Under the pieces are notes generated by a model, which saw only the letters and a program-made list of their open reading frames with translations, ran no database searches and had not been told where the DNA came from. From an archaeon (GTDB lineage: Archaea; Undinarchaeota; CAZHTU01; JBDRCC01), in assembly GCA_043822065.1 (NCBI GenBank), contig JBDRCC010000017.1, positions 1 to 62,323 on the forward strand: a stretch of 62,323 nt of DNA, in the 5' to 3' direction. How positions within the stretch are numbered: position 1 is the stretch's first letter; every line of letters starts with the position of its first letter. The position numbers and the translations under genes were made by a program. Positions 54,074 through 62,323 of the stretch are shown here, piece by piece.

Positions 54074-55225
54074 ATGGTTCGCGTCAAGGAATTCAAGATA
54101 CACAAGCTGAATGGCCTAAAAGACGGCAAAGATGCCATCAAGCATAACACGGAGCTAATAACTGAGTTCTACAACGCCATGCACGCCCACAACACAGAGG
54201 CGGTCGCCCAGATGCTTGATGGTGCCGTGGATGAGCCATCGTTTTATTACTATGAAATAGAGTTTGACGACAAAAAAAAGAGGGGCAAGGGAGTGCTAAG
54301 AGGGTATGTTGGCCTGCTTGGCGTTGAAGAGTACGGGTCAAACATCTTCAATCATGAGAACTATTTCGAGACGCTTGCTGAGGAGATATGGGGCAGCCTC
54401 CGGCACTGCGGAATAAGCTTCAGCCCGATAATGGTCCTATACCCAAACACGGAAGAGGGCATAACCTCCATTGAGCCGCCAACGCAGCTTGAGATGATAC
54501 AGTCCACGGAGTATAACGACATGAGGACCGGAAACGTAACCCACAGAATATACCGGATATGCGACGACGGCTGGAATGCGGAATTCAAAAAAAGGATGCA
54601 AAGCCGCTGGGTGGTCATCGCAGACGGTCATCACAGGTACGTTGCCTCAAAAAAATTGAGCGAATCAGACTGCATTTCATGGGTCCCTACAATGTTTATG
54701 GATGAGAATTCCGGCATGGTGGTTCTTTCGTTCACGAGGGTTGTAAAGAATATGGACCTAAAGCTGTTTGACAAGATAACCCACGCGTATCCGTTTAGCC
54801 GCACGCCAGTCGGCAGCATGGTGGAGATGGAACACGAAATCGAGCTGATGCAGAAGACGCGGTTTGGGCTTTTCTATATTGACAATGGGGAAGACAAGTA
54901 TGAGATAATGGAGGTCGACGCGGAATACTTTGAAAAGTACTGCAGGGATAACGAAGAATATTCTGCAATGGGCGTAAAGCTCCTCCACTCCCTTGCCTTG
55001 GACAAAGCGGTGCAGAACCCTGCAAACAATATAGAATACACGACGTCGAGGGAACATACTAAGGAGCTCATAAAAAATGGCTACCAGATTGGGATTTTTA
55101 TGGGGCGCTACAAACCGCAGGACATAATCCAAAAAGGCAAAGTCGAACGCAGGATTATGCCGCAAAAGGCGACCTGCTGCATACCAAAGACCGTCCCTGG
55201 CATTGGCATCTGGAAATTCAGATGA
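54074..55225 (+). CDS. DUF1015 family protein (ParB/Srx-like fold)
   Basis: IFNHE, SPIMVLY, IADGHHRY, IMPQKAT..PK. Confidence 0.82.
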   Translation: MVRVKEFKIHKLNGLKDGKDAIKHNTELITEFYNAMHAHNTEAVAQMLDGAVDEPSFYYYEIEFDDKKKRGKGVLRGYVGLLGVEEYGSNIFNHENYFETLAEEIWGSLRHCGISFSPIMVLYPNTEEGITSIEPPTQLEMIQSTEYNDMRTGNVTHRIYRICDDGWNAEFKKRMQSRWVVIADGHHRYVASKKLSESDCISWVPTMFMDENSGMVVLSFTRVVKNMDLKLFDKITHAYPFSRTPVGSMVEMEHEIELMQKTRFGLFYIDNGEDKYEIMEVDAEYFEKYCRDNEEYSAMGVKLLHSLALDKAVQNPANNIEYTTSREHTKELIKNGYQIGIFMGRYKPQDIIQKGKVERRIMPQKATCCIPKTVPGIGIWKFR

Positions 55226-55497
55226 CTGTACAGCTCCACATTATTGTTGAGGGGCGCGTTCAAGGCGTTTTTTTCAGGCACAATGCGAAGATCCAGGCAG
55301 ATACCCTTGGTTTGGCTGGCTGGGTCCGGAATTTAGAAGACGGGCGCATAGAGATTGTCGCCCAAGGGCAAAAAAAGAAGCTGGAGTCCCTGCTTGAGTG
55401 GGCGTCTAAGGGCCCGCCTGCCGGCAAGGTAAACAAGGTCACTCATGAATTAGGGCAGGCGAAAGAAAAGTTCACATATTTTGAGATTAGGAGATAA
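55222..55497 (+). CDS. acyP: acylphosphatase
   Basis: GRVQGVFFR, GWVRNLEDG, KGPPAG. Confidence 0.95.
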   Translation: MTVQLHIIVEGRVQGVFFRHNAKIQADTLGLAGWVRNLEDGRIEIVAQGQKKKLESLLEWASKGPPAGKVNKVTHELGQAKEKFTYFEIRR

Positions 55498-56056
55498 GCT
55501 CGCCCATCTTTTTTTCGGAGCGCTTTTTGACATCCTCGTGGAGGCTGTTTCCCGTCGAGTCCATGGTAACGACTGCTGGAAGGTCTTTTACATTAAGGGC
55601 CCAGACCGCATCCGGCAGTCCAAGCTCTTTTAGGTACACGCCGGCGACCGACACTACTGACTTTGCCAGGAGAGCCGCGGTTCCGCCAACGGTAGAAAAG
55701 TAGACTGCGCCATGCTCCTTTAGAGTGTCAAGGACTCTGGCATCCATGCCGCCCTTGCCGATAATCCCGCGTATGCCGTACTTCCGCATGAGTTCCGGCT
55801 CGTATTTGTTCATCCTCGAGCTCGTTGTCGGGGCAGCAGAAATGACTTTGTATCCCTCGGCAGTCTTTTTTGCAATCGGGCCGCAGTGGTAAAGGATGTG
55901 CCCGGATAAGCTGATTCCGAATTTCTGCCCGGAGAGGAGCTTTAGATGTGCCCTGTCGCGCGCAGTAAAAAGCGTTCCAGAGATAAGGACTGCATCGCCG
56001 ACCTTGAGCTGGCGTGCCTCCTCCTCTGACATTGGGGAAGAAATCTGCTTAGGCAT
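55487..56056 (-). CDS. class I fumarate hydratase / Fe-S hydro-lyase beta subunit
   Basis: TARDRAH, YHCGP, PTTSSRM, IGKGGM, VTMDSTGNSL. Confidence 0.92.
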   Translation of the reverse strand: MPKQISSPMSEEEARQLKVGDAVLISGTLFTARDRAHLKLLSGQKFGISLSGHILYHCGPIAKKTAEGYKVISAAPTTSSRMNKYEPELMRKYGIRGIIGKGGMDARVLDTLKEHGAVYFSTVGGTAALLAKSVVSVAGVYLKELGLPDAVWALNVKDLPAVVTMDSTGNSLHEDVKKRSEKKMGELIS

Positions 56057-56960
56057 ATTTTGCCTTGCCCCCCTTTAGCACAAGGGTTTTGCGCCTGAGG
56101 GCCCAGCACCCAAAGGACACATCTACAAAGTAGGAAGCTACGTGCCTCGCGGTGAATGCAACCTTTACGGCAAGGGCTGTCGTATTCCCGCCAAAGCCGG
56201 AAGGGCCTATGCAAAGCGAATTGGCTTCCTGAAGCATTCTCTTTTCGAATTTGTCAAGACGGGGATTTGGGTTTTTGTCGTCAATTCTCCTTAACAGCTG
56301 CCTCATGGAGAGCTCTGAGACAACTTCCCTCGAGCCGCCTACTGCAACTCCAATTACCTCCGGCGGGCAGCCCATGCCCTGCGCCCTGAACACGGCATCC
56401 AGGATGCATTTTCTGACGCCCTCTATGCTGCGGTCTGCGTTGAGCTCAATATCCGGCAGGGAATACGTCCGCCCGATGTTCTCAGAGCCGCCGCCTTTGA
56501 GCAGGAGGTCAACTTTCAGGTACGTTTTGTTCCACTCCTCAAAATGGATTACTGGAAATGCTTCGCCCGTATTGTCCAGCGTGTTCTTGCCTGAAAGCGT
56601 GTCAACTGCGTTCGACCTTAATGGGATTTCCTTGGTTGCCTTCTTGGTTGCGGCAAGTATTGCTTTTCGTATGGCTGTGTGGCTGAAGCCCGCCGGGCAG
56701 CTGACGTAGAAGATGGGCGTCCCCGTGTCCTGGCAAAGGGAAACTGACTCGCATTTAGAGATATCCGAGTTCTGCAGTATCTGGGCTATCGCGGATTCGG
56801 CAAGCGTGCCGCTGAGTTCAGACTTGAGGGCTTTCCTAAGGCCAGCCTCAATGTCCTTGGGCAGCTCAGTCGCCGCAAGGCGGTAGAGCTCGATTATCTG
56901 CTCAGGCAGCAAACTTGCATGCCCGCTTCGTGACTTCTTCTTCATAATCATCAAGGTCAT
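56049..56960 (-). CDS. class I fumarate hydratase / Fe-S hydro-lyase alpha subunit
   Basis: CQDTG, KGGGSEN, GCPP, GPSGFGG, CWALRR; start uncertain. Confidence 0.92.
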   Translation of the reverse strand: MTLMIMKKKSRSGHASLLPEQIIELYRLAATELPKDIEAGLRKALKSELSGTLAESAIAQILQNSDISKCESVSLCQDTGTPIFYVSCPAGFSHTAIRKAILAATKKATKEIPLRSNAVDTLSGKNTLDNTGEAFPVIHFEEWNKTYLKVDLLLKGGGSENIGRTYSLPDIELNADRSIEGVRKCILDAVFRAQGMGCPPEVIGVAVGGSREVVSELSMRQLLRRIDDKNPNPRLDKFEKRMLQEANSLCIGPSGFGGNTTALAVKVAFTARHVASYFVDVSFGCWALRRKTLVLKGGKAKYA

Positions 56961-58245
56961 CTATTTTCAGCCGCGCAACTTTGGATTTCATCGCCGCCTC
57001 TGCAACGTATCTCGCAACCCTCGGGACCACGCGCGGGTCGAGGGGCTTGGGGATTACGTAGTCCGCTTTCATGGGGGCCTTGCCATCGAACATGCCTGCT
57101 GTGGAATCCTTTTGGTAAGCCTTCGCAAGGAATGCCTTGGTCTTGCGGGGAATCGCCTCTTTGGCAACTTCGGACAGCGCCTTCGAAGCGCCAATCTTCA
57201 TCGCCTCGTTTATGTCCCCTGCCCTGCAGTCAAGCACGCCCCTGAATATCCCTGGAAAGCCGAGGACATTATTTACTTGGTTTGGGTAGTCAGACCTGCC
57301 GGTCCCAACCACCAACGCGCCAGCCTCCTTAGCGTCAGCGGGCGATATTTCAGGGAGGGGATTTGCCATTGCATAGACAATTGCGCCATCTGTCATTGAA
57401 GATACCATGTTTTTGGTGACCACGTTGCCGACAGAAACGCCGACAAAGACATCCGCGCCCTTCATGGCGTCCTCAAGCGTTCTTGCGTCAGTCTCAGAGG
57501 CAAGCCGCTCCTTCCGCAGGTTCATGTTTTCTTGGCGGCCCTTGTAGACTACGCCAGCAGTGTCGCAAAGAACAAGGTTCTGTTTCTTGACGCCGGCAGA
57601 AACATAATACTCTGCGCAGGCGATTCCAGCGGCGCCAGCCCCATTGAAGACGACCCGTATCGCTCCAATCTTTTTGTTTGCAAGTTCCAAACCGTTCAAA
57701 AGCCCGGCGAGGGAGATTATTGCGGTGCCGTGCTGGTCGTCGTGGAAGACGGGTATGCCCATTTCCCGTTTCAGGCGGCTCTCGACCTCAAAGCATGCGG
57801 GTGATGCTATGTCCTCAAGGTTTATCCCACCAAACGTCGGCTCAAGCTGCTTTGTCGCAGTGATTAGCTTCTCTGCGTCAGTCTTCCCGTGCGCGTCGCG
57901 CACGCCAGAAAGGCATATTGGAAATGCGTCCACGTCTGCAAATGTCTTGAACAGCACAGATTTGCCCTCCATAACGGGCATTGCTGCGTCTGGGCCTATG
58001 TCGCCAAGCCCTAGGACTGCAGAGCCGTCAGAGACTACTGCAACGAAATTCCCGCGTGCGGTATAATCCCATACTGCATCCTTGTCGTCTTTTATTGCGA
58101 GCGAGGGGTATGCAACTCCAGGGGTGTACGCCAAGGAAAGCTCCCTTTGGCTCAGGCAGGACTTTGTAGAAACGACTTCAATCTTGCCCTTTCGCCCTTT
58201 TTTGTGGTACTCAAGGGAGTCGCGCTTGAGCTCCTGCTCGTTCAT
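56902..58245 (-). CDS. NAD(P)-dependent malic enzyme
   Basis: LAYTPGVA, VLGLGDIG, PVMEGK, INLEDI, FHDDQHGTA, GAGAAG; start revised to ATG 58245. Confidence 0.94.
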   Translation of the reverse strand: MNEQELKRDSLEYHKKGRKGKIEVVSTKSCLSQRELSLAYTPGVAYPSLAIKDDKDAVWDYTARGNFVAVVSDGSAVLGLGDIGPDAAMPVMEGKSVLFKTFADVDAFPICLSGVRDAHGKTDAEKLITATKQLEPTFGGINLEDIASPACFEVESRLKREMGIPVFHDDQHGTAIISLAGLLNGLELANKKIGAIRVVFNGAGAAGIACAEYYVSAGVKKQNLVLCDTAGVVYKGRQENMNLRKERLASETDARTLEDAMKGADVFVGVSVGNVVTKNMVSSMTDGAIVYAMANPLPEISPADAKEAGALVVGTGRSDYPNQVNNVLGFPGIFRGVLDCRAGDINEAMKIGASKALSEVAKEAIPRKTKAFLAKAYQKDSTAGMFDGKAPMKADYVIPKPLDPRVVPRVARYVAEAAMKSKVARLKIDDLDDYEEEVTKRACKFAA

Positions 58246-58282
58246 GGCAAAGGTTATAAGAGGTCGGAATAAATAGTTAACC

Positions 58283-58702
58283 ATGATAATTGTCTTGGGC
58301 GTGGGAAACGAAATGAAGGGCGATGATGGAGTCGGCCCATATGTCGCGAAAAAAGTCAAACAAACAGATCAACTGGTTGCCATTGATACCTCAACAGCAC
58401 CTGAAAACTTCTTCGGAAAAATCGAGGAACTAAAGCCAGACAAGCTGATTGTTGTAGACGCAATCGATTTTGGTGGCAACCCGGGCGAAACACGCGTTGT
58501 CGACACTGCCAAACTTGACCGACGCGCACAGAGCACCCATAACATGCCAATCAGGCTCTTGATTGATATCCTAAAAATAAGTGCTGTCTTTGTTGGAATA
58601 CAGATAAGGCAGAACGTTATTGGCGAAGGGCTTAGCCCGGAAGTCAAAGCCGCGGCTGACGCCCTGGTAAAAAAGTTAAATTCAGGGGCGGCTATTTCTT
58701 AG
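58283..58702 (+). CDS. hydrogenase maturation endopeptidase (HycI-like)
   Basis: GVGNEMKGDDGVG, APENF, VDAIDFG, STHNMP. Confidence 0.9.
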   Translation: MIIVLGVGNEMKGDDGVGPYVAKKVKQTDQLVAIDTSTAPENFFGKIEELKPDKLIVVDAIDFGGNPGETRVVDTAKLDRRAQSTHNMPIRLLIDILKISAVFVGIQIRQNVIGEGLSPEVKAAADALVKKLNSGAAIS

Positions 58703-59048
58703 GCTTGGGTTTCAGCTTTGCCGACTTGACCATAAGGTCCTTTGCCTCAGTCGTGGCCATCTCATAGTCGTTAGTGAGCGCGATTATCTTGACCGGGCAT
58801 TTTTCAGCGCACTCCGCGCAGAATATACAGAGCCGGAGATCAAACTCTGGCAGCTTGGTCTTCTGGTTGAATGCGCAGGCCCCGCTAGGGCAGACGCGCG
58901 AGCAGTTGGCGCAGTGTATGCACTTGTCGAAGTCGCAGGTAAGCCTGCCGCGGAATGCCTTTGGCGGCTCTGCCTTGACGAACGGGTACCTGAGTGTTGC
59001 GGGCTTCTTGAAGATGCTTTTCAGCGCCTCTTTCAGTACGGGAAACAT
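58692..59048 (-). CDS. 2[4Fe-4S] ferredoxin-like subunit (NuoI/EchF/HycF type)
   Basis: KPATLRYPF, FRG, CIHCANCSRVCP and CIFCAECAEKCP. Confidence 0.9.
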   Translation of the reverse strand: MFPVLKEALKSIFKKPATLRYPFVKAEPPKAFRGRLTCDFDKCIHCANCSRVCPSGACAFNQKTKLPEFDLRLCIFCAECAEKCPVKIIALTNDYEMATTEAKDLMVKSAKLKPKPKK

Positions 59049-59052
59049 GTTA

Positions 59053-60156
59053 TCAGTAAGTTATCAGCTTCTCCACGTCTTCGGCAGGTATGCCTGAAAA
59101 CTTGGAGTTAGCTATTATACGGAGGTTCTTTATTTCCTTTTCGAGAGAGAGCATATAAGCAAGCGCCTTGCCGCTGCCAAGGGGGTCAGAAAGCGCAAAC
59201 CGCGACGCCTGCCCAACAAGGAACCGATCGAGCGCAGTTGCCATTTCGTCTGGACTGGGCCCGGCTTCGGAAAGCAGCCCGTGGTAAGAAGTGCCTTCTA
59301 CGGATGAAAGGACAGCAGCCACAGTCTCAGAATCAGCGAGCTTTTTTCTCCGGCTTTCATCCAATTCATAGCTGCCAGCGAGCAGTTCGTCTTTCTGGAC
59401 CTTTGAGCCGCTTGAAATGCCCCTTAGTACTAACTTGATGTTTTCTATTTCGGCAGTCATGCCAAATAGCTGCTTTGCGTACCGGTCCTTGCCGGTCTGG
59501 ATGGAAAGCCTGCGCCATAGCTGGGAATATAGGTGGCGGTCAACGACAGAAGTAAGCAGGGATAGGTTGTCCGTCCGCTTGAATTCGGCAAACGCACCTT
59601 TAAGCGGCTCATAGTAGTCTGTCGTCTCAAGGCGCTGAAGAAGCTCCCCTATATCGCGGCCTTCCAGAAGGTTCTCAACCATCTTGCTGTCAAAAAATCC
59701 GAAAGGCAGAATGGAAACCTTCAAGCCGGAGTATTTTGATACGAGTGCCTCCTTGAGTACCGACGCCTCTTCAGATTTAATAAGGAAGCCGTAGATGAAG
59801 TGCTCGTCGCGAGGGGTTGAGGATAAGAGAAACTCCTTCTGGCGCCGCGCCTCCTTTTTGAGTGCCATATCAACAGATTCGGGGGACTGCGATCCTGATA
59901 TCTCTGAGAACGCATGCTCGTAGGGCGTGCCCTCCAGCATCGATATCATGTCAGCTAGCTTAGGCGCCTCTATCAGCGAACGGTACAGCTCTTTGCCAAT
60001 GCGCCTGCCCTGCGCAGCGCTTATGCGGGCATTTGAGTAAGCATGGGACGAGTGGTCCAGTACCAGCTTTAGGATTGGGATAAACAGTATGAAGGACACG
60101 AGTATGGAGAACCCTACCAAAAGAAGCGCAAAAGTAGTGTTCAGCTCGATTATCAT
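59053..60156 (-). CDS. atpC: A/V-type ATP synthase subunit C with N-terminal TM helix
   Basis: AYSNARISA, LEGTPY / LETTDY / VEGTSY repeats, EIENIK, EKEIKNLRII. Confidence 0.88.
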   Translation of the reverse strand: MIIELNTTFALLLVGFSILVSFILFIPILKLVLDHSSHAYSNARISAAQGRRIGKELYRSLIEAPKLADMISMLEGTPYEHAFSEISGSQSPESVDMALKKEARRQKEFLLSSTPRDEHFIYGFLIKSEEASVLKEALVSKYSGLKVSILPFGFFDSKMVENLLEGRDIGELLQRLETTDYYEPLKGAFAEFKRTDNLSLLTSVVDRHLYSQLWRRLSIQTGKDRYAKQLFGMTAEIENIKLVLRGISSGSKVQKDELLAGSYELDESRRKKLADSETVAAVLSSVEGTSYHGLLSEAGPSPDEMATALDRFLVGQASRFALSDPLGSGKALAYMLSLEKEIKNLRIIANSKFSGIPAEDVEKLITY

Positions 60157-60695
60157 TTAAAGAGCTCCCTCCCCGCGTGCATCCGCAATTCGCTTGATTT
60201 CCTTTCGAAGATTGCCGGGAAAGTCAGGTCCATTGTTGACTCAACAGTCTGGATTATTATTCCCCGCGGCATCTCCTGCTCCTTGACTTTTATGTCCGAC
60301 CGGGAAATCAGGTTTTTGTCGCCTGTGCGTATGTAAACCGTGGCACCCTTGAGCTCTGAACCAACAGAGGATAAGAGATTTGATAGGAGCTTATGGTACT
60401 CTTTCCGTGGCATAGAGTCTATCCTCTTAAGCGCAGATGAAACTGCTGAGGAGACAAACTCGTCCTTCAGCTGGCGCTCCGCGCGCCTTGTTTCGACTAT
60501 TGCCTCGGAAACAATCCTCTGCTTGGCGGATTTGGCTTCGCCCTTCCCCTGCTCAAGTATTTGGCGCTTGATGTTCGCTATTTCCGGCATTGATTCGCCA
60601 ACAAGGCGCTTTTTCTCTGCCCTGGCTACGTCAAGCACCGTCTTGCGCTCCTTTTGCGCATCCTCGTTTATTTTCGAAATCATTTTTTCCATCAT
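60153..60695 (-). CDS. atpE: A/V-type ATP synthase subunit E
   Basis: Coiled-coil N-terminus, GIIIQ...DLTF...ELF end, position between K and C. Confidence 0.85.
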   Translation of the reverse strand: MMEKMISKINEDAQKERKTVLDVARAEKKRLVGESMPEIANIKRQILEQGKGEAKSAKQRIVSEAIVETRRAERQLKDEFVSSAVSSALKRIDSMPRKEYHKLLSNLLSSVGSELKGATVYIRTGDKNLISRSDIKVKEQEMPRGIIIQTVESTMDLTFPAIFERKSSELRMHAGRELFK

Positions 60696-60696
60696 G

Positions 60697-62322
60697 TTAT
60701 CCTCCCATAAGTCCTACCTTGAGCATTATCAGTATCGCTGCCAGCAAGCCGAGTATTGCAAATGTCTCTGGCATAACTGCGAGTATCAAGCTCTTGCCGA
60801 ATGACTCAGGCCGCCGGGACATGGACATGATTCCTGACGCCGCAACAATTCCCTGCCCGATTGCTGACAGCCCGGCAAAGCCGACAACGAGCCCGGCGCC
60901 GACTGCAGCTATGCCAGCTGACAGCGGAAGCTCGGTTACTGTGCCGCTGAGTATTCCAGTGAAATAAAGCAGCATTATCGCCACCAGGAGGCCGTAGATT
61001 GCCTGGGTCTCGGGAAGAACCGAAAATACCATAGACTTGCCGAAGAGGGACGGATCACTTGAGGTCGCGCCAGCGCCAGCCGCCGTAGCAATTCCTTGGC
61101 CTATGGCTGAGAGGCCAGCAATTCCAACGGCAAGCCCGGCGCCGACTGCGGCGAGCGCGGCTGCGCCAGTTACCTGGTTGAACGTTCCGCCAAGAATTCC
61201 TGTAAAGAAGAGTATAAGTATTGCGACAAGGAGGCCGTATATCGCCTGCGTCTCCGGAAGTACGGAGAATACCATCGACTTGCCGAACATGTTCTGCTTT
61301 TCTGCAGTGGCCGCGGCGCCGGATGCCGCAGCGATTCCCTGCCCCACTGCAGAGGAGCCAGCAAAACCAATTGCCATACCCGCGCCTACTGCGGCAATCC
61401 CTATGACTAGGGGCATGTCTGGAATGAACTTCCCGCCAATCAGGCCTGTGAAGAACATTATCAGTATGGCGATTAGGAGGCCATAGATTGCCTGGGTCTC
61501 GGGGAGGACTGAGAAAATCATGCTCTTGCCGAAGAGGGATGGCTTTTCAGAGGTAACGCCTATGCCAGCTGCTGCGGCAATGCCTTGGCCTATTGCAGAT
61601 ATTCCTGCAAAGCCAACTGCGATTCCAGCGCCTACTGCGGCAAGCCCGGCAGCTGCAGGTATTGCTTTTATTCCGCCGCCAAGTATTCCTGTGAAAAAGA
61701 GTATTAAAATTGCAACCAAAAGCCCGTATATCGCCTGGGTTTCTGGGAGGACTGAGAATACCATCGACTTGCCGAACATCTGCGGCTTATTCGCAGTCGC
61801 GCCCGCGCCCGCCGCCGCCGCGATTCCCTGCCCGATTGCCGACAGCCCTGCAAACCCAATTGCCATGCCCGCGCCTATTGCGGCGATTCCAACAGGTATT
61901 GGCATATCCGGGATATAACTGCTCCCGATTATGCCGGTGAAGAACATTATCAGTATGGCGATTAGGAGGCCATAGATTGCCTGGGTCTCGGGGAGGACTG
62001 AGAAAATCATGCTCTTGCCGAAGAGGGATGGCTTTTCAGAGGTAACTGCTATCCCCGACGACGCAACTATTCCCTGCCCTATTGCGGACAGCCCTGCAAT
62101 CCCAACAGCTATGCCTGCACCAACCGCAGCCAATCCGGCAGCTGTTGGCAGAGCGGAAACGCCGCCGCCGATAATTCCTGTAAAGAAAAGTATCAAGATG
62201 GCGACAAGCAGCCCGTATATGGCTTGAGTCTCTGGCAGTACGGAGAAGACCATTGATTTGCCGAACATATGGGGTTTGTCCGCAGTGGCTGCTGCGCCTG
62301 CTGCCGCCGCAATGCCCTGCCC
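60697..62322 (-). CDS. atpK: A-type ATP synthase subunit K/c with at least 7 fused hairpins (5' end outside the window)
   Basis: Six PETQAIYGLL plus a terminal PETFAILGLL, each preceded by GQG; the frame stays open to the window edge (GQGIAAAAGAAATADKPH). Confidence 0.95.
   Translation of the reverse strand, partial: GQGIAAAAGAAATADKPHMFGKSMVFSVLPETQAIYGLLVAILILFFTGIIGGGVSALPTAAGLAAVGAGIAVGIAGLSAIGQGIVASSGIAVTSEKPSLFGKSMIFSVLPETQAIYGLLIAILIMFFTGIIGSSYIPDMPIPVGIAAIGAGMAIGFAGLSAIGQGIAAAAGAGATANKPQMFGKSMVFSVLPETQAIYGLLVAILILFFTGILGGGIKAIPAAAGLAAVGAGIAVGFAGISAIGQGIAAAAGIGVTSEKPSLFGKSMIFSVLPETQAIYGLLIAILIMFFTGLIGGKFIPDMPLVIGIAAVGAGMAIGFAGSSAVGQGIAAASGAAATAEKQNMFGKSMVFSVLPETQAIYGLLVAILILFFTGILGGTFNQVTGAAALAAVGAGLAVGIAGLSAIGQGIATAAGAGATSSDPSLFGKSMVFSVLPETQAIYGLLVAIMLLYFTGILSGTVTELPLSAGIAAVGAGLVVGFAGLSAIGQGIVAASGIMSMSRRPESFGKSLILAVMPETFAILGLLAAILIMLKVGLMGG
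61448..62046. repeat. perfect 110-bp direct repeat (61448-61557 and 61937-62046), period 489 bp
   Basis: Read directly from the sequence; a 26-bp identity at 61265 and 61754 has the same 489-bp offset. Confidence 0.9.
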
Positions 62323-62323
62323 T

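Follow-up and report, generated by a model that had tools for sequence, protein, structure and literature searches.

We describe a fused atpK gene, encoding the proteolipid c/K subunit of an A-type ATP synthase, in an archaeon of the phylum Undinarchaeota. Read across the ends of two contigs, the gene has at least 10 and probably 12 hairpins. Its 3' part, the larger one with about two-thirds of the gene, lies at the edge of the stretch of DNA analysed here (hereafter the window), 62,323 nucleotides (nt) that make up the whole of contig C17 in a 1.03-Mb, 22-contig genome that is 82% complete. By its sequence, atpK looks like a functional rotor gene of the Methanopyrus kind, and it appears to be a variant derived from the two-hairpin subunit NtpK, with a single dead ion site at the seam where its C-terminal hairpin would meet its N-terminal one. 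Such many-hairpin rotor fusions are a rare design, known in the excerpts of published work consulted from one cultured archaeon and found here in an archaeon with a small genome. When a rotor is fused, its ion sites per turn, and hence what an ATP costs in ions, can be counted in the gene and do not depend on the number of subunits brought together.

A fused proteolipid gene across two contig ends

The 3' part of atpK is a single open frame of 541 amino acids (aa) on the minus strand, and its 5' end runs off the contig. PF00137 (ATP-synt_C) matches this frame in seven stretches (E 2.9e-117; 383.4 bits, Pfam gathering cut-off 24 bits), which a genome scan resolved into six full hairpins and one that is N-terminally truncated. 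A first-pass annotation of the window, made from the letters alone, had described an uninterrupted frame of seven hairpins open at the window edge. This description held, with one of the seven cut, and so did its account of the motifs: helix-1 GQG and helix-2 Glu-Thr occur in 7/7 hairpins and ETQxxY (PETQAIY) in 6/7, while the last reads PETFAIL. The annotation had further proposed extending the contig to count the hairpins. The 5' part was found at the end of contig C7, where PF00137 matches in four stretches (188.9 bits). At their ends, C7 and the reverse complement of C17 overlap exactly over 88 nt and in the same frame, and a direct join gives 300+541-29 = 812 aa with 10 hairpins and 9 helix-2 Glu residues. 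The parts of the gene, from the N-terminus to the C-terminus, are as follows (positions without a contig name are those of the window).

C7:142473-143372, plus strand: atpK 5' part, 300 aa, three full hairpins and one C-truncated; from the genome scan, the frame starting with a Met right after atpI
60697..62322, minus strand: atpK 3' part (A-type ATP synthase proteolipid c/K); open frame, PF00137, in-frame 88-nt overlap with C7
62191..62322, minus strand: hairpin cut by the contig end, GQG/PETQAIY, type B, 88 nt common with the C7 end
61948..62124, minus strand: full hairpin, GQG/PETQAIY, type A
61702..61878, minus strand: full hairpin, GQG/PETQAIY, type B
61459..61635, minus strand: full hairpin, GQG/PETQAIY, type A
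61213..61389, minus strand: full hairpin, GQG/PETQAIY, type B
60970..61146, minus strand: full hairpin, GQG/PETQAIY, more diverged
60727..60903, minus strand: C-terminal seam hairpin, GQG/PETFAIL, homologous to hairpin 2 of Enterococcus hirae NtpK

On C7, hairpin 1 is Glu-less (PQTQGFY), with GMGAG in place of the helix-1 GQG, and is followed by two complete hairpins and the cut one. The helix-2 Glu is present in 9/10 distinct hairpins; hairpin 1 has Gln there. For the Na+ motif we used a helix-1 Gln/Glu and a helix-2 E-[STQ]-[STQ]-x-x-Y, as given in the excerpt of a 2026 bioRxiv preprint. The full Q...ETQxxY motif, whose Q...ET..Y core had been named a Na+ signature in the first-pass annotation, is present in 8/10 distinct hairpins, the exceptions being hairpin 1 (A...QTQxxY) and the last (Q...ETFxxL). 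A complete ion site is thus not kept in every hairpin: hairpin 1 is without Gln and Glu, and the last hairpin is without Gln+2 and Tyr+5 (counted from the helix-2 Glu).

The hairpins are diverged repeats under constraint. Those of the same type are 77-83% identical in DNA, and Tandem Repeats Finder reports a period of 489 nt (two hairpins) with 2.7 copies and 76% matches. Pairs of internal hairpins have a synonymous divergence (dS) of 0.67 to above 1 and a ratio of nonsynonymous to synonymous divergence (dN/dS) of 0.07-0.15; in two pairs that include the terminal hairpin, dN/dS is 0.19-0.30. These values point to purifying selection on each hairpin and, together with the divergence between hairpins, indicate that the array is not a product of chance, low complexity or trivial repetition. 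An exact direct repeat of 110 nt (61937-62046 and 61448-61557, 489 nt or two hairpins apart) looks like a recent gene-conversion tract in units that otherwise show the divergence given above.

The position of the gene at two contig ends of a metagenome bin, its 110-nt exact internal repeat and the six-hairpin K subunit of its nearest relative by AtpI (P0159 and P0084, probably on one contig) could mean that mis-assembly, of repeats or of strains, turned a shorter gene, for example one of six hairpins, into an inflated or chimeric one. We consider this very improbable. The six full hairpins on C17 lie in a single frame flanked by unique genes; the hairpins differ at 17-40% of bases, in agreement with the earlier judgement that a mis-assembled short repeat was unlikely, and no exact repeat of at least 141 nt occurs inside either piece. 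Contigs of the public run X1, which may be the source sample, align perfectly to stretches of 151, 252 and 68 nt in the region. Moreover, a 109-kb contig and closed genomes carry complete genes with 12-13 hairpins.

How many hairpins the gene has depends on the join. The other contig-end overlaps in the assembly are all exactly 141 nt (5/5: C1/C19, C5/C16, C7/C18, C11/C20 and C13/C14), presumably the assembler's k; these are likely graph adjacencies that can be used for scaffolding the genome. An overlap of 88 and not 141 nt between C7 and C17 is expected if both contigs end in a repeat of ~190 nt. Run X1, the best public run (only 0.10 of the sampled words occur in it), contains a 190-nt contig with a depth of 6.7, against 2.4 for two unique pieces, which reaches 122 nt upstream of the C17 end and whose first 33 letters show 3 mismatches where 1 was expected from the C7 tail. 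The closest complete homologue, P0004 (970 aa, 63% identity), has 12 hairpins with the same first and last types. Taken together, the 88-nt overlap, the 190-nt contig and P0004 point to a two-hairpin unit that the assembly has left out between C7 and C17. Twelve hairpins is the number to which we give about an even chance; ten is a tentative second choice, and any other number is more doubtful still.

Logan contigs of X1 covered 9/30 bins of the region at a depth of ~2, none across the contig end. An exact 50-mer from the overlap had no match in metagenome_contigs, and protein searches of metagenome_contigs and genome_contigs with AtpE and AtpC gave no close relative. Counting by orthology to P0004, P0041 and P0084 was tried and rejected. 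In this comparison the first and last hairpins pair one-to-one with those of relatives, and the internal ones do not. The internal hairpins of the host and of relatives such as G005 and P0004 were therefore amplified or homogenised separately.

Shared ion sites and the seam

In the parts of PMC2359735 consulted, the Na+ site is shared by two hairpins. In Ilyobacter tartaricus, subunit A contributes Gln32 and Glu65 to the site and subunit B contributes Val63, Ser66 and Tyr70; in E. hirae NtpK, Gln110 and Glu139 come from hairpin 2, and Leu61, Thr64, Gln65 and Tyr68 from hairpin 1 (PMC2359735). NtpK is also the best solved relative of AtpK by sequence (2bl2_A, E 2.8e-17). In the alignment, PGTQGLYGF of NtpK hairpin 1 falls on the penultimate hairpin of AtpK and VETYAILGF of NtpK hairpin 2 on the last (PETFAILGLL). 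Because it aligns to NtpK hairpin 2, the terminal hairpin is a normal Glu-bearing second hairpin of a V-type proteolipid and not a degenerate one; its own Glu site is probably intact, and the residues absent from it (Gln+2 and Tyr+5) would belong to a dead neighbouring site at the seam with hairpin 1. Read across neighbours in this way, only the seam site of AtpK appears incomplete. The divergent last hairpin had earlier been proposed either to close the ring or to bind ions differently; the first proposal survives in the sense that this hairpin would meet hairpin 1 at the seam, while the second probably does not. AtpK departs from the two-hairpin NtpK layout, having at least eight complete hairpins between the first and the last, and it resembles an NtpK-type pair whose halves are separated by inserted complete hairpins.

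Covariation between neighbouring hairpins supports this assignment. We assembled 157 proteins, namely all 37 from a search for longer proteins and the best 120 of 271 near homologues, and located their hairpins with a hidden Markov model built from 53 hairpins. The counts were made on 43 distinct architectures, each taken once, with 5 H+-type proteins and the two pieces of AtpK itself left out. All 38 hairpins without the helix-1 Gln or the helix-2 Glu were preceded by a hairpin without Tyr+5, and 311/312 intact hairpins were preceded by a Tyr+5-bearing one (the exception is in P0151). No such link was found in the opposite direction. When the last hairpin was paired cyclically with the first, 28 architectures combined a last hairpin without Tyr+5 with a first one that is dead, and 2, including the type labelled Methanopyrus by NCBI, had both intact. 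Five were mixed: in four the first hairpin is intact and the last has no Tyr (several are visibly N-truncated), and in the fifth, P0062, which looks C-truncated, the first is dead and the last bears Tyr. The replacement residues vary (M, F, L, S, A, N and T), so that several independent events are indicated.

The covariation also indicates that the C-terminal hairpin touches an N-terminal one. A protein of N hairpins would accordingly be expected to have N-1 working sites, with the single dead site where the C-terminal hairpin meets hairpin 1, and neighbour covariation offers a sequence rule for counting the working sites of any multi-hairpin proteolipid.

Giant rotor genes among relatives and the size of the ring

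Usual c/K subunits have 1-2 hairpins, with 3 in Methanocaldococcus jannaschii and 13 in Methanopyrus kandleri, as the first-pass annotation had stated; the excerpts of PMC2359735, PMC9171764 and the 2026 bioRxiv preprint that were consulted give these same values, and they cite only the numbers 1, 2, 3 and 13. In a full-text search of freely searchable main texts with A1AO or c-ring terms, no phrase for six, 12 or twelve hairpins occurred in the papers listed (12 of 13), and neither ATP synthase nor ATPase is mentioned in the main text of the paper describing Undinarchaeota. Among 401 archaeal genomes including the host, single frames with at least 10 hairpins were found in the host (its two parts taken as joined), in G005 of the same phylum (978 aa, identical to P0009, 12 hairpins) and in 5/6 genomes of one genus, with the Methanopyrus pattern. 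The survey of relatives that the first-pass annotation had called for thus gave 1, 5, 6 and 12 hairpins within the phylum: by hairpin matches, 1 in ten other genomes, 5 in one, 6 in three, 12 in one and none in one. AtpK and these relatives form a natural series on the evolution of ring size and coupling ratio. The gene was rightly called giant, with at least 10 hairpins once the C7 part is added, and it is not unique: 32 public Na+-type proteins have 12-13 hairpins.

The AtpK of M. kandleri (1021 aa, 13 hairpins), like that of the host, is one gene with ~80-aa Na+-motif hairpins, from which a single-polypeptide rotor was deduced (Lolkema & Boekema 2003 as cited in excerpts of PMC2359735 and the 2026 bioRxiv preprint). 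Methanopyrus-labelled proteins are 53-55% identical to the host AtpK. They carry Gln and Glu in all 13 hairpins and ordinary ETQ..Y ends, whereas the host has a Glu-less first and a Tyr-less last hairpin and, by our reading, one dead site; the host also differs in its 10 or 12 hairpins, its phylum and its operon context. The 12-hairpin proteins from metagenomes (for example G005 = P0009; P0004), which look unpublished, share the host architecture and are 59-63% identical to it, with an A.QTQY cap, complete hairpins and an ETY..F or ETF..L end. G005 has a canonical H-I-K-E-C-F-A-B-D operon, unlike the host, where the block stands apart from F-A-B-D and is nested in mbh genes.

The smaller rotors share parts of this plan. 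E. hirae NtpK (PDB 2BL2), a two-hairpin protein with one Na+ site and 10 chains in each ring, ranks first among solved relatives by both sequence and fold. Its hairpin 1 (PGTQGLYGF) is Glu-less like hairpin 1 of the host (PQTQGFYGF), and its VETYAILG resembles the host's last PETFAILG. In NtpK the cap is followed at once by the terminal hairpin, whereas the host has at least eight complete hairpins in between and thus close to one site for every hairpin, against one for every two in NtpK. The three-hairpin AtpK of Methanococcales (M. jannaschii and others) is also multi-hairpin and in the same type of operon, with 3 instead of 10-12 hairpins and several copies per ring; the AtpK of M. jannaschii has only two carboxylates. 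A three-hairpin frame in G023 consists of a cap, a complete hairpin and a terminal hairpin; three-hairpin frames, of 220 aa, also occur in Methanocaldococcus-like genomes (G039 and others). The best named or sampled relatives of the host AtpI and AtpC are in Methanococcales-type genomes (35-37% and 28-32%, respectively).

Several other multi-hairpin forms came up in the search. P0033-P0037 (1108-1147 aa, 15 hairpins), two of which are labelled Promethearchaeota archaeon by NCBI, have an H+-type E-A-L-x-x-Y helix 2 and no helix-1 Gln, and look like a second, unrelated class of giant rotor genes. P0049, P0063-P0068, P0074 and others are six-hairpin K subunits (~590-650 aa) with an N-terminal PKD-domain extension of ~100-150 aa; several of these are labelled Thermoplasmata or Thermoplasmatota. 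P0001, P0010 and P0019 are tandem 6+6 forms with an internal seam (ETF..F, then a Glu-less V.QTQ..Y) and an N-terminal extension of ~130 aa, and P0014 is a 6+3+3 fusion. A six-hairpin K of 481-484 aa, of which no mention was found in the papers listed by the literature searches, is present in cultured Methanomicrobiales (P0044, P0046, P0076, P0078 and P0111; by their NCBI names Methanocalculus, Methanofollis, Methanomicrobium and Methanolinea).

These proteins bear on whether one AtpK polypeptide makes a whole ring. In a search covering 948-2705 aa, the 32 Na+-type proteins (965-1186 aa) divide into 14 with 12 hairpins and 18 with 13, the maximum, and the set includes the 6+6 and 6+3+3 fusions with their internal seams kept. 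The number of dead sites inside 12-13-hairpin proteins ranges from 1 to 4, so that the ions per turn would vary from 9 to 13. Solved V/A entries with 12 one-hairpin chains are 6qum and 5gar (132 chains in 11 entries each), which we take to be from Thermus thermophilus, and the solved 2bl2 ring has ten two-hairpin chains (50 chains in 5 entries). The AlphaFold 2 (AF2) model of the homologue P0004 is confident as one body (predicted local distance difference test score, pLDDT, 89.1; predicted template-modelling score, pTM, 0.89). A Foldseek search of the PDB with this model returned two-hairpin chains only, the best being 2bl2_A (E 4.2e-03; template-modelling score 0.83 on the target), and no solved single-chain ring is there for comparison. 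From the stop at 12-13 hairpins and the confidence scores of the P0004 model, both of them indirect support, we infer that a single AtpK polypeptide may close the ring.

The same fused AtpK could instead form a ring of two or more copies placed head to tail, with 20-24 hairpins, the gene then encoding half a ring. The seam covariation fits an intermolecular seam equally well, as in the 5- or 6-hairpin proteins; the solved ring of E. hirae consists of 10 chains of two hairpins, and complete 5-, 7- and 9-hairpin proteins show that ring sizes vary. We regard this arrangement as unlikely, if a serious alternative, in view of the fused forms that stop at 12-13 hairpins in 32/32 Na+-type cases, the 6+6 and 6+3+3 fusions that total 12, as expected if 12-13 is a full ring, the solved entries with 12 one-hairpin chains, and P0004 modelled as one confident body. 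Even for M. kandleri the excerpts consulted describe the single-polypeptide ring as 'deduced' or 'supposedly' so (PMC2359735 and the 2026 bioRxiv preprint). The idea that hairpin numbers are divisors of 12 (3, 4, 6, 12) was ruled out by complete proteins with 5, 7, 9 and 13 hairpins.

The atp block inside the Mbh hydrogenase cluster

On C7, atpI (PF01496) lies directly upstream of atpK, and on the window side atpE and atpC follow downstream, tightly packed. The neighbours in the window are as follows.

60153..60695, minus strand: atpE (peripheral stalk), start 1 nt after the atpK stop; PF01991, E 3.8e-09
59053..60156, minus strand: atpC (AC39/d subunit, socket on the ring), 4-nt overlap with atpE; PF01992, E 1.2e-53
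58692..59048, minus strand: mbhN-like 2x[4Fe-4S] subunit of an Mbh-type hydrogenase, 4 nt after atpC; Fer4 families, 57% identical to the G001 gene directly after mbhM
58283..58702, plus strand: hycI-type hydrogenase maturation protease, divergent; PF01750, E 5.7e-17, same position in G001 and G011

Upstream on C7 there is a complete Mbh-type cluster that includes MnhE, MrpF, MnhB, a NuoK-like protein and MbhH (PF00361), then a 99-aa open reading frame, MbhJ (PF01058) and MbhK (PF00329), and ends with MbhL (PF00346 and PF00374, with CGIC and CLSC motifs) and MbhM (PF00146), which are followed by atpH, atpI and atpK. The assignment of atpH is weak (PF16999, E 0.002; 30% identity to the H subunit of G001). 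The genes atpH-I-K-E-C are therefore inserted exactly between mbhM and mbhN (C7:133303-143372 and window 58283-62322). In G001, from the same order, and in G011, mbhM is directly followed by the ferredoxin-like mbhN and then by the divergent hycI. Mbh genes beside atp genes were found in 0/35 loci from other genomes. Pyrococcus furiosus has an Mbh hydrogenase and a Na+-dependent A1AO ATP synthase in separate operons. In both organisms a Na+-motif rotor accompanies an mbh cluster of the 14-gene type that contains an Mrp module, and the host differs in having the AO genes between mbhM and mbhN.

The atp block and its surroundings differ in their relationship to G001. The matched Mbh proteins of G001 are 36-66% identical to those of the host (MbhJ, L, M and N 57-66%), whereas its AtpI, AtpE and AtpC are only 28, 26 and 22% identical. 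The atp operon of G001 is separate and canonical (H-I-K-E-C-F; A, B and D are on small contigs), and its K has one hairpin (78 aa). The same-order relatives (L033 = G001:C45; L027 = G002:C101) have a one-hairpin K, a canonical operon and an AtpI only 28% identical to the host's. The low identity of the atp proteins compared with the Mbh proteins suggests that the atp block was replaced or laterally acquired, and the insertion is probably of foreign or paralogous origin. Among the sampled proteins the nearest AtpI is P0159 (48% identity); it and the six-hairpin K P0084 are probably on one contig, the longest contig being 191,374 nt in both cases. The next relatives of AtpI are Methanococcales-labelled proteins (35-37%). 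A scan of genome_contigs with P0159 returned bacterial V-type loci only, at 28-29% identity.

The genes for the A1 head were searched for in the host genome. PF00006 and PF01813 gave 0 matches while the controls matched, the G005 and G001 operons, used as tblastn queries, hit no A, B, D or F gene, and no second set of I, K, E or C was found. Most likely, the F-A-B-D locus has been relocated and lies in the 18% of the genome that is not assembled. A further possibility is that atpH-I-K-E-C is a laterally acquired AO module without a head, in which the rotor would be a Na+-driven rotary device that serves or gates Mbh and not an ATP synthase. The missing head genes, the exact placement of the block between two genes that are adjacent in G001 and G011, and the low identities that suggest a foreign origin would all fit such a module. 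We nevertheless judge it improbable: one F-A-B-D locus of 4-5 kb could fit into the ~18% of the genome that is unassembled, there is strong purifying selection for an intact ion site in all hairpins, and AO without a head would leak the gradient built by Mbh. In addition, to our knowledge, E, H and C have no partner other than A1.

Taken together, we propose a model, in our view probable as a whole, in which the fused Na+-type AtpK, with at least 10 and most likely 12 hairpins, forms a monomeric ring linked to Mbh, the A1 genes being assumed to lie in the unassembled 18%. A Glu-less cap hairpin would be followed by complete Na+-type hairpins, amplified as two-hairpin units, and by an end like NtpK hairpin 2. 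Each Na+ site would combine Gln (helix 1) and Glu (helix 2) of hairpin i with Thr+1, Gln+2 and Tyr+5 of hairpin i-1. The single polypeptide would close on itself as a whole ring, and such a ring would fix the Na+ per turn at 9 (10 hairpins) or 11 (12 hairpins), or ~3.0 or ~3.7 Na+ per ATP. The gene would be co-transcribed with atpH, I, E and C within the operon of an Mbh-type, Mrp-linked [NiFe] hydrogenase, and the rotor would draw on the Na+ gradient made by this hydrogenase.

Several points weigh against this model. Genes for the A, B, D and F subunits were not found in the 22 contigs of the 82%-complete genome, while A/B scored above the Pfam cut-off in 15/16 other genomes of the phylum, with only a sub-threshold match in G002. 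The two parts of the gene sit at the ends of C7 and C17, which no read or contig was seen to bridge. The use of Na+ is deduced from the motif only, and because the covariation was counted on related sequences, its counts overstate how many events were independent. Finally, complete relatives with 5, 6, 7 and 9 hairpins are among the matches listed, so ring size is not one fixed number.

AO genes nested in an Mbh operon would bring a Na+-pumping hydrogenase and a Na+ rotor together as one transcription unit in a very small genome. The nested block may represent either a minimal chain from ferredoxin to ATP or, if A1 is truly absent, something new.

The surroundings of the cluster also encode metabolic enzymes. 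Isocitrate dehydrogenase and aconitase are encoded just upstream of the mbh cluster (C7:130019-133269), and class I fumarase alpha and beta and malic enzyme in the window (54074-58359), a notable set of tricarboxylic acid cycle-type enzymes for a small genome. The window also carries genes for an acylphosphatase and a DUF1015 protein.

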